Assembly: GCA_002428935.1 (NCBI GenBank)
Contig: DIYG01000026.1
Coordinates: forward strand, 20,946-84,945
Direction: 5' to 3'
DNA: 64,000 bases
Origin: Halieaceae bacterium UBA6060
Lineage (GTDB): Bacteria; Pseudomonadota; Gammaproteobacteria; Pseudomonadales; Halieaceae
Shown here: positions 13,728 to 21,850 of the stretch, piece after piece
Numbering within the stretch: position 1 is the stretch's first letter
Layout of the letters: the number at the start of each line of letters is the position of its first letter
The notes under the pieces: model-generated
Seen by the model: only the letters and a program-made list of their open reading frames with translations
Told to the model about the DNA's origin: nothing
Databases searched by the model: none
Made by a program: the position numbers and the translations under genes

Positions 13728-14288
13728 TCAATCGGTCGCGTCGCTTGCGAGTACCACGAGGACGCGACCGGACCCGCTTTCGCCAGCTTCGAAGGCCCGC
13801 TCCCACGCCCATGGCGTCATGCGCATATTCCCCCAACTCGGATCGGCGAGGATGGCTCGCCCGTCTTCGCTGAATCCTTTGAGCACCGTGAAGTGGGCAC
13901 GTCCATCCACGGTCAACGCCGCTATGACCGGTCGGGAGAGCTGCCTAAGAGTGGTCGTAGGGACCGCAATCCCCGCCGCGCGATAGCCCTGCCTCTGAGC
14001 CAGATCGCGCAGGTCTGCAAAGGAAACGCCATCATCAAAGCTACGTTCCAGACCCTGGCGTTGGTCTTGTTCGCGCAAGCTCGTTAAGAGAAAGGCTTCG
14101 TCCGTAGGGTCGAGGTGATCATAGGTCAAGATCGTTGCCAGGGCCGCGAGACCACAGCTGAAGTCATGGGCCTGTCTGACCACGCCCTCGTCTCGGAGGG
14201 CTATCCAGGACTTAAAGTCGCTAGAACCGGCTGCCGAGGACGCACAAAGAATCAAAAAGCAGACACAGCCTATCCCGGTATCAAGCAA
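13728..14288 (-). CDS. Stand-alone C39 family cysteine peptidase with putative signal peptide (start approximate)
   Basis: FKSWIALRDEGVVRQAHDFSCG (Gln and Cys), AHFTVL (His), ILADPSWG (Asp). No ABC domain. Hydrophobic N-terminal stretch CVCFLILCASSAA. Confidence 0.9.
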   Translation of the reverse strand: MLDTGIGCVCFLILCASSAAGSSDFKSWIALRDEGVVRQAHDFSCGLAALATILTYDHLDPTDEAFLLTSLREQDQRQGLERSFDDGVSFADLRDLAQRQGYRAAGIAVPTTTLRQLSRPVIAALTVDGRAHFTVLKGFSEDGRAILADPSWGNMRMTPWAWERAFEAGESGSGRVLVVLASDATD

Positions 14289-14374
14289 ACCACAGGCTAC
14301 GGACCACGGCCACCAGGGCTTTGATCCTACGCCAGCGAGCCTGGCCCACGGTATCAACCGCCCATCGGTAGTAG

Positions 14375-14656
14375 TCAGATGTTTGGTGGTTCGTAAGCCT
14401 CGTCGATCAGGCCCTCTCGACGCATCGCCGCCAGGGTGTCCCGGCGACCGAAGTAAGCCCAGGCTAGGCAGATAACGACAAAAGCGGCGGCCGAGACTAT
14501 GACGGCAACGGGGGGCAGCGCGCCATATTCGACATAGGTGAAGTAAGCGAAGAGCAAGGTCGGTACGGGCATTAGCAACAACCAGACGACCAAACGATTG
14601 CTGCGCCGCTCGAACTCTCCATCGTTGAGCTTTTTCCTCAGGATTGGATTCTGCAT
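14375..14656 (-). CDS. Small 2-TM membrane protein, putative immunity protein
   Basis: AGGAG RBS before ATG 14656; two hydrophobic helices; lies immediately downstream of the precursor. Confidence 0.7.
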   Translation of the reverse strand: MQNPILRKKLNDGEFERRSNRLVVWLLLMPVPTLLFAYFTYVEYGALPPVAVIVSAAAFVVICLAWAYFGRRDTLAAMRREGLIDEAYEPPNI

Positions 14657-14734
14657 GGACAAAACTCCTGGCTACATCGACCAAAAACATGGCAGGAAAC
14701 GGGGAGCCTGACAAGGGCAGACTCCCCTGAGAGG

Positions 14735-15088
14735 CTACCTTGGGTAGGGCTTGGGAATGTAGCACACGGGGCAGGTCGACCCGCCGCCACCCCCGCCAGA
14801 AGCATAGTTGGGGACATAAACTCCCCAGAAGAATCCGGCCAAGGCCAGGTCGACGGCGACCACTCCTAGAATAAACGGCATTACCTCCCCTTTTGTCTCC
14901 GTCATCTGGGATTCACTGAGCCAACTAACGGACTCTGTGGGTGCCTCCGCGAACACCTGGTTGTAATCGACGATGTCCATACCCTGACCAAACCGCTGTT
15001 CCTCGGCCATGGTTGTCGAACTGGCCACCAGGGCCACAAGTAGGGGTGCAACGAAATGCCTTACCCCGGCTAGCTTTTCTATATTCAT
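14735..15088 (-). CDS. Secreted bacteriocin-like precursor: Sec signal, acidic pro-region ending LSESQMTETKGE, hydrophobic core
   Basis: AGGAG RBS 7 nt before ATG 15088. Signal ends ...SSTTMA. Double-glycine-type leader LSxxxMxxxxG(E). Core VMPFILGVVAVDLALAGFFWGVYVPNYASGGGGGGSTCPVCYIPKPYPR. Confidence 0.75.
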   Translation of the reverse strand: MNIEKLAGVRHFVAPLLVALVASSTTMAEEQRFGQGMDIVDYNQVFAEAPTESVSWLSESQMTETKGEVMPFILGVVAVDLALAGFFWGVYVPNYASGGGGGGSTCPVCYIPKPYPR

Positions 15089-15132
15089 GCGACGACTCCT
15101 TTCGTCCAACTGTGGGGTTCCCCTAACCACGG

Positions 15133-15921
15133 CTAAAACTGATACTGATACTGCAAACTGAACTGGCTGCCACCACCCTCCCCGGACAGTTCACCGAGAA
15201 GGAATAGCGTGTTGTTTCGGTTGGGCGCATAACCAAGACCCGCTCTCAGACTGATGGCATCTCGGTCATTGAACACAGGCTCCCCGTCCACACTTGACGC
15301 TTCCGCTATAGATAAGGCCATACCTCCCAGAAGCGTGACCTGGGGGTTAACGGCGAAGTTGACCATGGGCTCAGCGCGCCACTGATCTCCTGGCCTGAAC
15401 CTACCTCCGTTGAGGTGATAGCTCTCCTGACGGAGGTAAGACACTCGGAGCGACAACACGACGGGGTCTATGCTGCGATAAAGCGTGGCGGCGAGCTGTC
15501 CCTGGAAGACGCGCTCATCGTTGTCTGCCAAACCCGCCACAGAATCCCCTCGTGCTTCGATAACGATCGCTGGCCAGGAGTCTTCCCGGCGGGCCTGCCA
15601 CACTCCACCAAGCCCATAGCTATGTCCCTGTCGATGCTGCGTGCGCCCCGGTTGGCGAAGCTCGCCCTGGTTCCAATCCAGGTTCGCATTCACTTCAAGC
15701 CTTGGCGACAAACCATAGCGCAGGGTGGTGGACCACAAGCTGTCTCGATCTTCTACACCAGTAGTCGGTGTTCGATCCCGCAGGAGTAAACCTGCGGATA
15801 GCTGTAGCCGGGAATCATCAACAATCAGTTGCTCGATACTCAGCGGTGCCTGGGCTTGAACTTGGGTCTGCGTAAGCACACTCAGGGCAGAGACGGAAAG
15901 ACTGTGTTTTAAGCCGCCCAT
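15133..15921 (-). CDS. Outer-membrane beta-barrel transporter (FapF/COG4313-like)
   Basis: Signal peptide, PLSIEQLIVD N-terminus, TLRYGLSPRLEV, DPVVLSL, alternating amphipathic strands and C-terminal YQYQF. Confidence 0.8.
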   Translation of the reverse strand: MGGLKHSLSVSALSVLTQTQVQAQAPLSIEQLIVDDSRLQLSAGLLLRDRTPTTGVEDRDSLWSTTLRYGLSPRLEVNANLDWNQGELRQPGRTQHRQGHSYGLGGVWQARREDSWPAIVIEARGDSVAGLADNDERVFQGQLAATLYRSIDPVVLSLRVSYLRQESYHLNGGRFRPGDQWRAEPMVNFAVNPQVTLLGGMALSIAEASSVDGEPVFNDRDAISLRAGLGYAPNRNNTLFLLGELSGEGGGSQFSLQYQYQF

Positions 15922-16079: not shown

Positions 16080-16772
16080 ATGCTGAGCAAATTTCCCCAG
16101 ATCCTGCCTTCTGTCACCTCCCGCAGCCTGGCCCAGGGCCTGGGTCTGGCTCTGATATTCCTGAGCGGTTGCGCCAGCTACCAGTCTGAATATGAAACGC
16201 GACTGATCGGGAGCCTGCCCAATCAGCGTGAGGTCACGATTGACGAGGCACAGAGCTTCCCTGGAGATGTGTTGTGCGGCCGCTACACCAGTCTCACAGG
16301 ACAGGGGTTCTCCTTTGTGACCCGTGACTTTGTCGTCACTCCTTACACGGTACTTAACCGGGCCAGCGAGCTGGAGCTATCGGTTTTCTGCGCTAAGAAT
16401 CCAAGGGCTGCTCTGCTCGAGAACACCGGTCTGGGAGCCTGGGACGACGACCTGCAGATCGCGACCCGCCTCCGCGATGATATGCGAGCTATCGATAACG
16501 CGATTCGCACCTACTACCGTACCCGGCACGGCATGCCAAAAAATCTCGACGTGTTGCTAGGGGAAGACCTGGGTCTCGATGAGACAAGCCTTCTGGACCC
16601 CTGGGGTAAGCGCTATCGCTACGACCCCGGTCTCTCCGGGCGCACCAAACCCATCTTCGAACTCATCAGCTATGGCGCCGACGGCCTCTCTGGGGGAAGC
16701 GGGGAAAACGCCGACATGCGTTATTCGCAGTTGGAACTCCTGGAACACATGTTGCGCGTGGAGGGGCTATAG
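16080..16772 (+). CDS. Lipoprotein with C-terminal GspG-like (T2SS pseudopilin) domain
   Basis: Lipobox FLSGC and DPWGKRYRY...LISYGADGLSGGSGENAD motif. No G-FTLIE prepilin site. Confidence 0.75.
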   Translation: MLSKFPQILPSVTSRSLAQGLGLALIFLSGCASYQSEYETRLIGSLPNQREVTIDEAQSFPGDVLCGRYTSLTGQGFSFVTRDFVVTPYTVLNRASELELSVFCAKNPRAALLENTGLGAWDDDLQIATRLRDDMRAIDNAIRTYYRTRHGMPKNLDVLLGEDLGLDETSLLDPWGKRYRYDPGLSGRTKPIFELISYGADGLSGGSGENADMRYSQLELLEHMLRVEGL

Positions 16773-20558: not shown

Positions 20559-21850
20559 AGGTTCTTGGTATCCGCAGTCTCCGTCTCATGAGCTGATGTC
20601 TCGGCCAGGGCAAACAGGTAGAGACCGATAAAAAACCAAAGCATAAGGCTCGACCAGGACGAATACCAAGCGGGATGGGTGTTAATGGGAAACAGCATGC
20701 CCGTTAAGGCTACGCCATAGGGCAAGGCCCGTGATCGCGCGGCGGCGGAAGCCCGTCGCCAGGCCTGCAACAGAACACCGACCAGAAGCGCGTAACCCAG
20801 CAAACCGAATACCCCCGTCTCACTACCCAGATCCAGCATCAACTGATGGGCGTGGGACCCACGGCTACCGGCTGAGCCCGCGAGGGGTTTCGCCCAGTGA
20901 TCGTCGGCACTAGCGTAGTCTGCATAGGCATAACGAAACCCCCTGGGACCAACGCCGTTCAGGGGGTTGTCAGAGAACATGCGTAGGGCCGTTCCCCAGA
21001 TAGGCAAGCGCTTTCCTGAGGCCCGGTTCAGCGTTTCATAGTCGGGATGCTCCACGGCTTCCACCAGAACATCGCTGCGCTGACGCACCCAGTCGCTTCC
21101 GCCATAGGCCACCAGCAGCGCCATGACCGCCGCCAGAGCAAAAGCACTGACCCGTCGCGGTGCCAGATACCCTCGCCCGTGGTAGTAAACGAGCAGGACT
21201 GCCAGCTCTACCGCCGCAACGATCCACGCTGCACGCTTCCCAGAAAGGGCCACCAGGGTCAGCAGTAAAACCACATAGGCCAGGGAAGCGGTTGTCGACC
21301 AGTTTCGCAGCGTTGTTACTACCGCAACGGGCATGAGTAAGGCCAGGGTTAGACCAAACTTGATGTTGTCGTCATCACCGAACAGCCCATTGATATAGCC
21401 CTCGCCAACACCGTACCCCAGGGTATTTCGCCCCGTCACAGCCTGAAGCAGACCATCAAAACACCACAGGCCCAACAACACCGTTACGGCATAAGCGATG
21501 ACTGCGAGTAAACGACGTTGGGTGCGCTCCGCATCGTGACTCAAGGCATACAGCGCCAGCAGCGCCGCACAGGAAAAGGGATAACGCAAACTTCCAATGG
21601 TGCTGAGGCTAGCTTTCTCCAGCGCTACCGCGTCGACAAGGGCAAGGATCATGGGGGTGACGAAAAGCAGGTACAGGACAACCAGCCGCCGCCACGGGGC
21701 TCCTGCAGCAAAAGCGGACGCGCGAGTCAGCAAAACCACGCCCAGGAGCGACAGAAAGCCCATGGGGATCTCAACCATGCGCCCAAAGGGAAGGAGAGCC
21801 AACGCTGCGACAAGCAGCATGGCGACGAGAGTGAGGCGCGGGTTACCCAT
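20555..21850 (-). CDS. O-antigen ligase (WaaL/Wzy_C) family membrane protein
   Basis: About 11-12 TM segments; SGKRAAW, R..IW..ALRMFSDNPLNGVG, HAHQLMLDLGSETGVFG. Confidence 0.85.
   Translation of the reverse strand: MGNPRLTLVAMLLVAALALLPFGRMVEIPMGFLSLLGVVLLTRASAFAAGAPWRRLVVLYLLFVTPMILALVDAVALEKASLSTIGSLRYPFSCAALLALYALSHDAERTQRRLLAVIAYAVTVLLGLWCFDGLLQAVTGRNTLGYGVGEGYINGLFGDDDNIKFGLTLALLMPVAVVTTLRNWSTTASLAYVVLLLTLVALSGKRAAWIVAAVELAVLLVYYHGRGYLAPRRVSAFALAAVMALLVAYGGSDWVRQRSDVLVEAVEHPDYETLNRASGKRLPIWGTALRMFSDNPLNGVGPRGFRYAYADYASADDHWAKPLAGSAGSRGSHAHQLMLDLGSETGVFGLLGYALLVGVLLQAWRRASAAARSRALPYGVALTGMLFPINTHPAWYSSWSSLMLWFFIGLYLFALAETSAHETETADTKNL

Follow-up and report, generated by a model that had tools for sequence, protein, structure and literature searches.

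The combination of a periplasmic C39-family cysteine peptidase with a FapF-like outer-membrane β-barrel is known from two studied systems only, the Fap amyloid system and the nap island of Neisseria, and in the latter the processing of the peptides has so far been only proposed. Here, we describe a four-gene cassette of a related kind from the Halieaceae bacterium UBA6060 (assembly GCA_002428935.1, contig DIYG01000026.1), found in a stretch of 64,000 nucleotides (nt) corresponding to positions 20,946 to 84,945 of the forward strand and referred to below as the window. The cassette comprises genes for an outer-membrane barrel, a small precursor with a two-part leader, a two-helix membrane protein (2-TM protein) and a stand-alone C39 peptidase. 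Probably, these four genes make up one functional unit for Nap/Fap-type two-step export, operating without an ATP-binding cassette (ABC) transporter and carrying a ribosomal peptide as its cargo.

In the Fap system, FapD was shown to act in the periplasm and to be required for export; the substrates are Sec-dependent, no ABC transporter takes part, and the substrate of FapD is still unclear (Rouse et al., Nat Commun 2017, PMC5557850). The nap island (Poncin et al., PLoS Biol 2025, PMC11798529) encodes NapF, designated a ‘homologue of FapF’, the peptidase NapP, the double-glycine (GG)-motif peptides NapA, NapB and NapC, and the proteins NapI, NapH and NapR. NapP is a C39 peptidase with a signal peptide (residues 1-23), and the signal peptide of NapF (residues 1-19) ends in ..AYA/DLPLTIED, where the slash, here and below, marks the cut (PMC11798529). 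According to the proposed model, NapP cleaves the Naps in the periplasm and NapF secretes them, the Naps themselves being cytoplasmic pre-peptides which may cross the inner membrane via the holin-like NapH (PMC11798529). The Naps display no antibacterial activity, yet promote autolysis (PMC11798529).

The features of the window cassette, with predicted cleavage sites, are as follows.

13728-15921, minus strand: the four-gene cassette, all four open reading frames (ORFs) co-oriented, in the order barrel, precursor, 2-TM protein, C39 peptidase
15133..15921, minus strand: NapF/FapF-like 12-stranded outer-membrane β-barrel, 262 amino acids (aa), assigned from AlphaFold2 (AF2), Foldseek and profile matches
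15853..15921, minus strand: predicted signal peptide of the barrel, M1-A23, from sequence reading and the homologue alignment, with the cut placed after VQA
15820..15852, minus strand: mature N-terminus of the barrel, QAPLSIEQLIV, with the family motif [QD]-x-PL-[ST]-I-E-x-L
15136-15150, minus strand: C-terminal YQYQF β-signal of the barrel
14735..15088, minus strand: precursor (cargo) gene, 117 aa, with an ATG start and an AAGGAG Shine-Dalgarno sequence
15005..15088, minus strand: predicted Sec-type signal of the precursor, M1-A28, MNIEKLAGVRHFVAPLLVALVASSTTMA/EE (..TTMA/EE), from sequence reading
14885..15004, minus strand: pro-leader E29-E68 with F46 of the ‘AF’ motif and a double-glycine-type motif
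within the pro-leader, precursor residues 57-68: the double-glycine-type motif LSESQMTETKGE (L57-S-E-S-Q-M62-T-E-T65-K-G67-E68), followed by the hydrophobic core
14738..14884, minus strand: predicted mature peptide V69-R117, 49 aa, with a hydrophobic helix, Asp80, FWGVYVP, a Gly6 run and C106-P-V-C109
14375..14656, minus strand: inner-membrane protein with two helices, 93 aa; both termini are basic, and the predicted topology is N-in/C-in
13728..14357, minus strand: stand-alone C39 cysteine peptidase of the NapP/FapD type, ~209 aa, start TTG 14357, alternative start TTG 14288
14172-14174 (Gln), 14154-14156 (Cys), 13893-13895 (His) and 13842-13844 (Asp), minus strand: catalytic codons of the C39 peptidase

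A preliminary description, made from the letters of this DNA alone, had listed four co-oriented genes here, and all of the ORFs are present on the minus strand, separated by gaps of 44, 78 and 17 nt. The order barrel–precursor–2-TM–C39 is repeated on the contigs bearing homologues: a scan with the peptidase alignment, covering one genome per species, gave 59 loci, and four profile hidden Markov models (HMMs) run on six-frame ORFs, each at E <= 1e-9, recovered the cassette complete and in order in 34 non-redundant loci of the Halieaceae type. The latter belong to Haliea, Chromatocurvus, Pseudohaliea, Halioglobus, Kineobactrum and Sediminihaliea, as well as to Halieaceae and unclassified metagenome-assembled genomes (MAGs). 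Since the same order recurs in 34 non-redundant loci, the arrangement is far beyond chance. In about 24 loci, as in the window, the cassette resides between the genes of a CitMHS transporter and a lipoprotein resembling the type II secretion protein GspG (T2SSG-like) on one side and the gene of a PreP M16 peptidase on the other, and in some Haliea loci (L001, L003/L004) it is found, likewise intact, between fumarase and DUF885 genes. As it remains intact in either setting, the cassette can with good reason be regarded as a functional module. Each component is single-copy in the 64-kb window, e.g., the 2-TM protein (HMM match with E 6e-38) and the precursor, whose match to the precursor HMM (E 4e-31) and the pro-leader HMM (E 6e-19) is the sole one of this kind.

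The peptidase is the only member of the cassette with a Pfam family (PF03412), while searches of the barrel, the precursor and the 2-TM protein against Pfam, NCBIfam and PADLOC gave only chance-level matches (8xMP E 0.03, PspM E 0.11). The nature of the barrel is evident from its predicted fold. The AF2 model built on the family alignment (pLDDT 85) has 12 main strands, and the Foldseek search of the PDB placed FapF chains 5o67/5o65 at the top, at E ~1e-13 and identities of 17-19% (5o67_A with E 9.6e-14, TM-score 0.74 and 17% identity). Next came the COG4313 channel 4rl8 (E 2e-9, TM-score 0.69) and then autotransporter barrels. Close relatives of the barrel are few (11 matches in the sequence search), and a narrow profile of 11 sequences found nothing among the PDB sequences. 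The full HMMER search of 1.84 billion representative proteins yielded 503 relatives, and a 66-sequence family profile derived from these matched the FapF sequence with E 1.5e-13. Hence, both the structural match and the broad-profile sequence match make the barrel a true but distant FapF homologue, and its comparison with FapF and COG4313, proposed in the preliminary description, came out positive for both. The alignment of the barrel family with the published NapF, made with hhalign, reached 94.5% probability (E 7e-8). The PF13557 model is matched by 12 of the 66 family members but not by the window barrel itself. Barrel relatives of ~400 aa were at one point considered true FapF proteins and were dropped, as they match no NCBIfam model and, with phmmer, do not match FapF.

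The N-terminus of the barrel deserves a closer look. Its signal cut after VQA parallels AxA in the homologues and in NapF, and the first strand begins at residue 39, i.e., ~15 residues past the predicted cleavage. The columns of Q24, P26, I29, E30 and L32 are near-invariant in the alignment, residues 27-30 form a short helix in the AF2 model, and the [QD]-x-PL-[ST]-I-E-x-L motif is present in the barrels of more distant loci (L042, L045, L047) and in NapF as well. The conserved PLSIEQL motif may be the counterpart of the plug helix of FapF.

The C39 domain of the peptidase is recognized by PF03412 with E 1.8e-12 and 47.7 bits against a gathering cut-off of 22. Its motifs, VVRQAHDFSCG ... AHF ... 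LADPSWGN, include the oxyanion Gln six residues before the Cys, and the intact catalytic set reported earlier is borne out: Gln62, Cys68, His155 and Asp172 (numbered from TTG 14357) all fall into columns invariant across 14 homologues. The ORF stops ~35 residues past the catalytic Asp, so there is no room for an ABC domain, and the protein is a stand-alone C39 peptidase with a hydrophobic N-terminus, as had been claimed. The sequence search returned 39 homologues; those of the peptidase and the precursor with names come from Haliea, Chromatocurvus and unclassified Pseudomonadota MAGs. The best NCBIfam models are FapD (NF058616, 55.6 bits) and FilB (NF050078, 50 bits, E 2.6e-13), with the equivalog cut-offs (330 and 475 bits, respectively) far from reached, and PCAT models score at most 27 bits. 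The peptidase is therefore a relative of FapD, its best NCBIfam match, and not FapD itself. In the BLASTP comparison, it displays 33% identity to the Neisseria NapP (E 8e-23), and the family profile finds PCAT1 (2.5e-9), a double-glycine protease domain of the LahT type (2.3e-8) and ComA (1.3e-3) in the PDB.

An automatic gene call of the peptidase in public databases (P0012, 151 aa, window 13728-14183) begins past the conserved W..RD..V and the export signal; because it drops conserved residues, this call must, judging from the alignment, be too short, and with such a start annotation pipelines would label the peptidase as a cytoplasmic C39 fragment. The ORF given in the preliminary description stands, with its start corrected to an uncertain one, TTG 14357 or TTG 14288, both of which keep the hydrophobic N-terminus. 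Across the family, a hydrophobic stretch of 12 residues is encoded within 50 residues upstream of the W..RD..VV.Q..DFSCG block in 47 of 48 loci. Many of these N-termini are textbook signals, e.g., MSRRGN...ILLASCLLVAGSVSLPVSTVRA/DD, and the corresponding segment of the window protein reads ...GIGCVCFLILCASSAAG/SSDF. The catalytic domain would thereby face the periplasm, no matter whether the N-terminus is cleaved or serves as an anchor. Predicted hydrophobic N-terminal export signals are thus carried by three of the products, the barrel, the precursor and the peptidase, in line with what the export-signal check had been expected to return.

The precursor has ~50 homologues of 97-120 aa, built in the same way: a Sec-type signal, a variable region with ‘AF’, the motif L-x4-[ML]-x-E-T-x-G-x, the hydrophobic segment PL..LAIAGVD..L.G.FWGVYVP, GGG and, usually, CxxC. 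The signal of the window precursor consists of an n-region with K5 and R10, the h-region FVAPLLVALVA and a c-region TMA, and an N-terminal signal is kept in all the cargo found. To derive the leader logo, 85 unique cargo leaders were aligned on the invariant Gly, taken as position -2, with a regular expression fixing -12, -7, -4 and -2 and leaving the other positions free. The logo comprises L-12 (76 of 85), S-11 (52), E-8 (61), M-7 (68, plus 16 with L), E-5 (53), T-4 (69), G-2 (85) and P+3 (50), while position -1 is occupied by A (35), R (21) or E (15). Read from the sequences, it seems to be the canonical double-glycine register (L-12, S-11, E-8, L-7, I/V-4, G-2) except for the permissive -1 and the Thr at -4. 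In the window, the corresponding residues are L57 (-12), S58 (-11), Q61 (-8), M62 (-7), T65 (-4), G67 (-2) and E68 (-1). As the motif is aligned in the double-glycine register, the C39 peptidase is predicted to cut after Gly67-Glu68 (TKGE/V); the double-glycine-type leader recognized earlier is thus retained, and the cut formerly put at TKG/E is moved past the Glu. The AF2 model of the precursor, of low confidence (pLDDT 60), has one helix at residues 59-65 and another at 71-98, with a break at 66-70 between them, which would lend weak support to a leader helix, a break at the cut site and a core helix. The class IIb bacteriocin model TIGR03949 (lactobin A/cerein 7B) does not match the window precursor; the leader and core start of a distant relative (L045) score 16.8 bits with it (E 0.004), below the cut-off of 21.5 bits.

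Two MAGs closely related to the window possess tandem precursor genes (L002, 6779-7141 and 7318-7671; L008, 3674-3967 and 4190-4504). In the first copy of each pair, the leader MIETEGD and the CxxC tail are kept and the hydrophobic core is replaced by the Pro-rich WPRAFSSPPVSRPLATYAWTIVVPGV.

As the window barrel and peptidase are homologous to NapF and NapP, the kind of system in question, a periplasmic C39 peptidase with a 12-stranded barrel of the Nap/Fap type, is already published. The likeness to nap extends to the ADLPLTIED-type N-terminus and the LRYGL common to both barrels, to the export signal at the N-terminus of a stand-alone C39, and to the small peptide and membrane-protein genes located between barrel and C39. 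The differences concern primarily the cargo: the window precursor, like most of its relatives, has a Sec signal in front of the leader, whereas the Naps are cytoplasmic pre-peptides in the published model, and its hydrophobic, Asp-containing helix with a CxxC tail differs from the cationic, helical and sequence-unrelated Naps. Furthermore, no homologue of NapR, NapH or NapI was recognized and the cassette holds no extra gene, with the limit that very short accessory genes were not searched by homology. Finally, the cassette is intact across the sampled Halieaceae genera; nap, in contrast, is an acquired island of low GC content that contains degenerate genes. The distinctive feature of the cassette is its two-part Sec-plus-GG leader, of which a literature search (subscription journals not covered) found no account.

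With Fap, the cassette shares the 12-stranded barrel fold, a peptidase whose best NCBIfam model is FapD and, as predicted here, a Sec-dependent substrate handled without an ABC transporter. Unlike Fap, it has a peptidase missing the FapD cut-off and a 262-aa barrel without the N-terminal periplasmic coiled-coil and linker of FapF; no FapA/B/C/E genes were found at the cassette with Pfam and NCBIfam, and the substrate and its recognition motif are evident. The cargo of the window has no amyloid-type repeats, as previously stated: Tandem Repeats Finder reports nothing beyond the codon run of Gly6 and the YQYQ tail. The peptidase-containing ABC transporters (PCATs) and type I secretion systems of class II microcins and bacteriocins (PCAT1, ComA, LagD) have in common with the cassette the C39 catalytic domain, apparently the leader register L-12, S-11, E-8, M/L-7, G-2, and Gly-rich or hydrophobic cores followed by small ‘immunity-like’ membrane genes. 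In contrast to them, the window C39 is predicted to be exported and is not fused to an ABC domain; a Sec signal precedes the leader, which is thus internal (residues 29-68) and would be cut in the periplasm, and the topology is the reverse of theirs. At position -1, the G/A/S of those leaders gives way to A, R or E, Thr stands at -4, and a 12-stranded barrel would take the place of TolC. The Acinetobacter FilB, by name a ‘putative pilus system C39 family peptidase’, resembles the window peptidase as a stand-alone non-ABC C39 and its second-best NCBIfam model but differs in the score (50 bits against the cut-off of 475) and in the other fil-like genes, which are not present here; no mechanistic work on FilB came up in the literature search. 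The COG4313/PF13557 channels, e.g., 4rl8 of P. putida, are the second structural match of the barrel and include Pfam-level relatives in its family, but they are not known to be linked to C39 or cargo genes; they are thought to take up hydrophobic compounds.

What is observed is the set of four genes, their homologies and conserved order, and the common leader; from these, we infer the following localizations, cut site, secretion route and role for the 2-TM protein. Sec would translocate the 117-aa precursor, and signal peptidase I would remove residues 1-28, with Asp80 holding the hydrophobic core just under the threshold of inner-membrane retention. The periplasmic C39 peptidase, exported or anchored by its own N-terminus, would recognize the ~40-aa pro-leader via L-12, M-7, T-4 and G-2 and cut it after Gly67-Glu68. 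The 49-aa hydrophobic peptide would thus be freed, its CxxC capable of forming a small disulfide loop, and the FapF/NapF-like barrel would carry it over the outer membrane. The 2-TM protein would either shield the membrane of the producer from the peptide or handle the latter. The machinery as proposed (Sec, periplasmic C39 and barrel) is quite likely, and there is a somewhat better than even prospect that the peptide leaves the cell.

Several observations weigh against this scheme. The signal peptide of the barrel is weak; the C39 gene has a TTG start with a poor Shine-Dalgarno sequence, and its product is devoid of the C-terminal tail carried by most homologues. The Glu at position -1, occupied by Ala, Arg or Glu in the relatives, departs from the Gly/Ala/Ser of known C39 sites, and the exact position of the cut follows from the register argument. 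The promoter scan of the cassette returned no promoter-like site, and the terminator scan returned a single terminator-like site, located inside the precursor gene, which is fewer than in the shuffled sequences. Among public runs, the sequence is present in the DNA runs of one coral metagenome and in no RNA run. The term ‘ABC-free’ used in the preliminary description holds for the 64-kb window, where no ORF joins a Walker A motif and LSGGQ; it does not extend to the genome as a whole, where an ABC partner could be encoded elsewhere. The weakest step of the model is the passage of so hydrophobic a core through Sec, since the core helix of ~22 residues has a Kyte-Doolittle mean of 2.15; the core could stay in the inner membrane, and the estimate of its insertion is crude.

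The latter step is the basis of the main alternative, i.e., maturation of an inner-membrane protein. According to it, the core stops transfer (N-out, the CxxC tail cytoplasmic), the C39 peptidase clips the periplasmic pro-domain at the membrane surface, and the product acts in the membrane together with the 2-TM protein, the barrel being separate or accessory. The length and hydrophobicity of the core helix (residues 71-98 of the AF2 model), the joint conservation of the core and its 2-TM partner, and the gene of a YidD-like membrane-insertion factor in some distant loci would all fit. The energetics speak against it. D80, L83, W88, V92 and P93 of the core are invariant or nearly so in the homologues, and the 49-aa core contains two Asp, including the conserved D80, and two basic residues. 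On a crude, position-independent Hessa-type scale, applied to the best stretch of 19 residues, the window core has an insertion energy of +1.9 kcal/mol; nearly all relatives fall between +1.6 and +4, with a median of 2.8, and two divergent second-copy precursors score still higher. For comparison, the same scale gives -1.3 for TM2 of the 2-TM protein and -2.15 for the core with Asp80 replaced by Leu. As the conserved Asp makes the insertion energy positive, it seemingly keeps the core segment translocatable. In addition, the tail breaks the positive-inside rule in most homologues, the barrel is kept alongside the other genes in every complete locus, and the cargo that stands behind the leader in the relatives is soluble or Gly-rich, reaches ~290 aa and cannot serve as a membrane anchor. 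Overall, retention of the product in the inner membrane appears improbable.

The CxxC near the C-terminus (C106-x-x-C109, window 14762-14773), often past a Gly run, recurs in unrelated cargo, e.g., as GGGGGGSTCPVC, GGGG..DGCHNCHK, FGYCGSCYN, GGGECTSC and TGCHVC (including the cargo of L047, L048, L002 and L054), and is missing from some precursors (P0093-P0100). It may represent a disulfide loop or a second export feature.

A second alternative leaves the machinery as it is and makes the cargo a self-assembling surface or matrix subunit of a Fap- or Fil-like fibre, with the 2-TM protein as an assembly or handling factor. It derives some support from the nearest named peptidases, which serve an amyloid (FapD) and a putative pilus (FilB), from distant cargo of low complexity rich in Gly/Asn/Ser/Tyr or Met (L047, L028), and from the conservation of the cargo. 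Within the precursors of the 34 Halieaceae-type loci, the mean pairwise identity amounts to 36% in the signal peptide, 32% in the pro-leader and 52% in the mature core, rising to 57% in its hydrophobic part; the corresponding values are 38.5% for the barrel, 44.1% for the C39 peptidase and 32.0% for the 2-TM protein, so the core is more conserved than the enzymes of a cassette which spans the sampled Halieaceae genera. On the other hand, a 49-aa mature peptide with one hydrophobic helix, free of amyloid-type repeats and unaccompanied by FapA/B/C-like genes, is hardly suggestive of a fibre subunit, and membrane-active class II peptides typically have GxxxG-type helices and Gly-rich tails. A fibre is thus improbable to about the same degree as the membrane-retained product, and secretion of a small peptide is preferred.

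As to what the secreted peptide does, it is probably membrane-active. Its mature core, as the most conserved segment of the cassette, is unlike classical bacteriocins, and this also counts against part of the scheme; of the small toxin and the signal peptide envisaged at the outset, the toxin option is thereby weakened, and an antibacterial toxin is unlikely. Because the core is the most constrained part and the cassette is conserved across the sampled Halieaceae genera, the sequences speak for a conserved physiological role rather than a strain-specific bacteriocin; the peptide might act on the producer itself or its kin, as the Naps do, serve in signalling, or take part in assembly at the cell surface. 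As a partner of the peptide, the 2-TM protein is a candidate for immunity or handling; its gene lies between the precursor and C39 genes in each of the 34 Halieaceae-type loci. That it is an immunity factor is conceivable, if somewhat doubtful. Small 2-TM genes are also found downstream of the cargo in distant loci. In the wider family, variable cargo, often followed by small 2-TM genes, does look like toxin–immunity pairs. The predicted cytoplasmic tail of the 2-TM protein (window 14375-14400; L001, L003, L006) carries a conserved acidic Y-[ES]-P-P motif, e.g., EAYEPPNI, DAYSPPEH and ETYEPPREVF.

In the family as a whole, 85 distinct tagged cargo were found; the sources are Halieaceae, Chromatiaceae, Ca. 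Tenderia, Thiotrichaceae, Sulfuricurvum, a sponge symbiont and Neisseria-like contigs. The tag common to them is a Sec signal, ‘AF’ and LSxxEMxETxG-x, followed by C-terminal cargo of 25 to ~290 aa, so the survey of neighbourhoods proposed in the preliminary description did turn up barrel and C39 pairs with variable precursor and small membrane-protein cassettes. In Chromatiaceae, Ca. Tenderia and a gammaproteobacterial MAG, the cargo comprises LSDQEMKETEGA and then Gly-rich bacteriocin-like peptides. The Thiotrichaceae cargo is a Gly-rich peptide ending in GGGG...CHNCHK, after which two 83-aa 2-TM genes are located. In a Sulfuricurvum sp. MAG, a 313-aa cargo (L028, 3959-4900) has LSDMEMTETKGE as in the window and then ~255 residues of low-complexity repeats rich in Met/Gly/Ala/Gln. 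The MAG of the sponge symbiont ‘Gammaproteobacteria bacterium AqS3’ harbors at least five barrel and C39 loci (L043, L051, L053, L055, L057) in the order cargo–C39–barrel, with cargo of 25-285 aa behind near-identical signal-plus-leader regions, which, by its sequences, looks like a cargo-swapping arrangement. Distant barrel and C39 loci are also present in Litorirhabdus and in a single-cell assembly labelled Rhodobacteraceae.

More than 531 relatives emerged from the metagenome scan with NapP-type peptidases. Of the 80 best loci, 53 contain the barrel and 35 a leader-bearing cargo, usually directly downstream of the barrel. In Neisseria-like contigs, cargo with a Sec signal and LSQKEMKETEGA directly follows napF, the NapP proteins are 80-87% identical to the published one, and the genes upstream of NapP-like C39s match the barrel profile with E-values as low as 1e-104. 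The Neisseria locus mentioned in the preliminary description does exist, with LSQKEMKETEGA cargo next to napF, and is published as the nap island (PMC11798529).

The constant leader and variable C-terminal part of these cargo bear upon a third alternative. It holds that the product is the acidic pro-peptide of ~40 aa and that the hydrophobic C-terminal segment is a sorting anchor, removed by the C39 peptidase in a sortase- or rhombosortase-like manner. The pro-region is indeed acidic and soluble, and a motif followed by a hydrophobic helix and a short tail resembles C-terminal sorting domains. Still, among the segments the pro-region shows the lowest conservation (32%, the core reaching 52%), and in the relatives length and variation reside in the C-terminal part, the pro-region being constant, as is typical of a leader. 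The leader is N-terminal to the product in all known C39 substrates (PMC5557850), and a product made of the pro-peptide is very improbable. Classical cytoplasmic processing, with a C39 peptidase lacking a functional export signal, a PCAT, type I system or other exporter encoded elsewhere and the barrel as an unrelated COG4313-type uptake channel, could appeal to the uncertain C39 start, the automatic gene call starting past the hydrophobic stretch and the PF13557 matches of 12 of the 66 barrel relatives, but it is the least credible reading of all, given the conserved W, R and D upstream of the short gene call, the hydrophobic N-terminal stretch in 47 of the 48 loci, the substrate’s own Sec signal, which brings the leader into the periplasm, the co-occurrence of barrel and C39 with cargo across phyla and the lack of an ABC ORF in the window.

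Under the preferred reading of export via Sec, periplasmic cleavage and the barrel, a broader view suggests itself, namely that the Sec signal with the pro-leader of ~40 aa is a general address label of a widespread unnamed two-step pathway employing a periplasmic C39 and a FapF/NapF-type barrel; the chances of this being so are about even. If true, variable cargo of ~25-290 aa would take this pathway in Gammaproteobacteria, Campylobacterota and Neisseria-like Betaproteobacteria, both Fap and the nap island of the gonococcus would be specialized or degenerate offshoots of it, the Halieaceae cassette would be its cleanest minimal four-gene model, and a route to the substrate rule of FapD would be at hand. 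With one barrel, one protease, one motif-bearing substrate and one membrane partner, the cassette renders protease specificity, the ATP-free transfer from Sec to the barrel and the secretion signal testable. The Sec-plus-GG leader can also serve as a search key: having revealed 85 distinct cargo, it could be used to mine for new secreted peptides and proteins.

The common leader suggests re-reading the annotation of the Neisseria nap peptides as well. The published gonococcal NapB (..LINGMRGVAVGAVAGG/ITGYAGSTGKNTDIRR) corresponds to the C-terminal 33 residues of a 145-aa tagged cargo in related contigs; this NapB-like cargo, encoded in Neisseria-like metagenome contigs (L069, 546-1061; L070, 5095-5595), has a Sec signal and LSQKEMKETEGA at its N-terminus. 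In another contig (L067, 5437-5490), whose NapP is 92% identical to the published one, the cargo ORF ends as soon as the signal peptide is complete, and the barrel is broken up into three parts. In part, the annotated gonococcal Nap peptides may, to judge by these sequences, be remnants of Sec-plus-leader cargo.

Judged by eye, some cargo domains in the wider family look like nuclease or RNase toxins. None of them has a significant Pfam match (the best one, GIY-YIG with E 0.015, is under the cut-off), so no toxin domain is claimed.

Among the neighbors of the cassette, a divergently transcribed gene should be mentioned.

16080-16772, plus strand: lipoprotein-like gene (..LIFLSGC..) with a C-terminal domain resembling that of the type II secretion protein GspG

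This gene is syntenic with the cassette in ~20 loci and was considered as a component; it was rejected, being absent in the second context of the cassette, and is probably not part of it.

Other observations concern larger or deviating versions of the system. In the Chromatiaceae and Ca. Tenderia loci (L042, 3610-3978; L047, 3576-3980), a gene between cargo and C39 encodes a protein in which a Cys-rich tail is joined to a YidD-like ‘membrane protein insertion efficiency factor’ (TIGR00278, E 2e-15), and the same loci feature a conserved secreted protein of ~300 aa without a family; larger versions of the system might use both as additional components. The Sulfuricurvum barrel (L028) is fused to a C-terminal extension of ~200 aa. 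A third architecture was encountered in soil metagenomes (L135, 5255-7876; L139, 5366-7800; L143, 2297-4835), where a secreted protein of ~145-160 aa with PMSSSELDAVKG/L is followed by C39 and then by a fusion of ~400-440 aa, its N-terminal part resembling the excisionase/MerR-type helix-turn-helix and its C-terminal part matching the barrel profile. The metagenome loci with C39 followed by a barrel, considered at one point to be fap operons, were dropped as such and represent this third variant with its PMSSSELDAVKG/L cargo.

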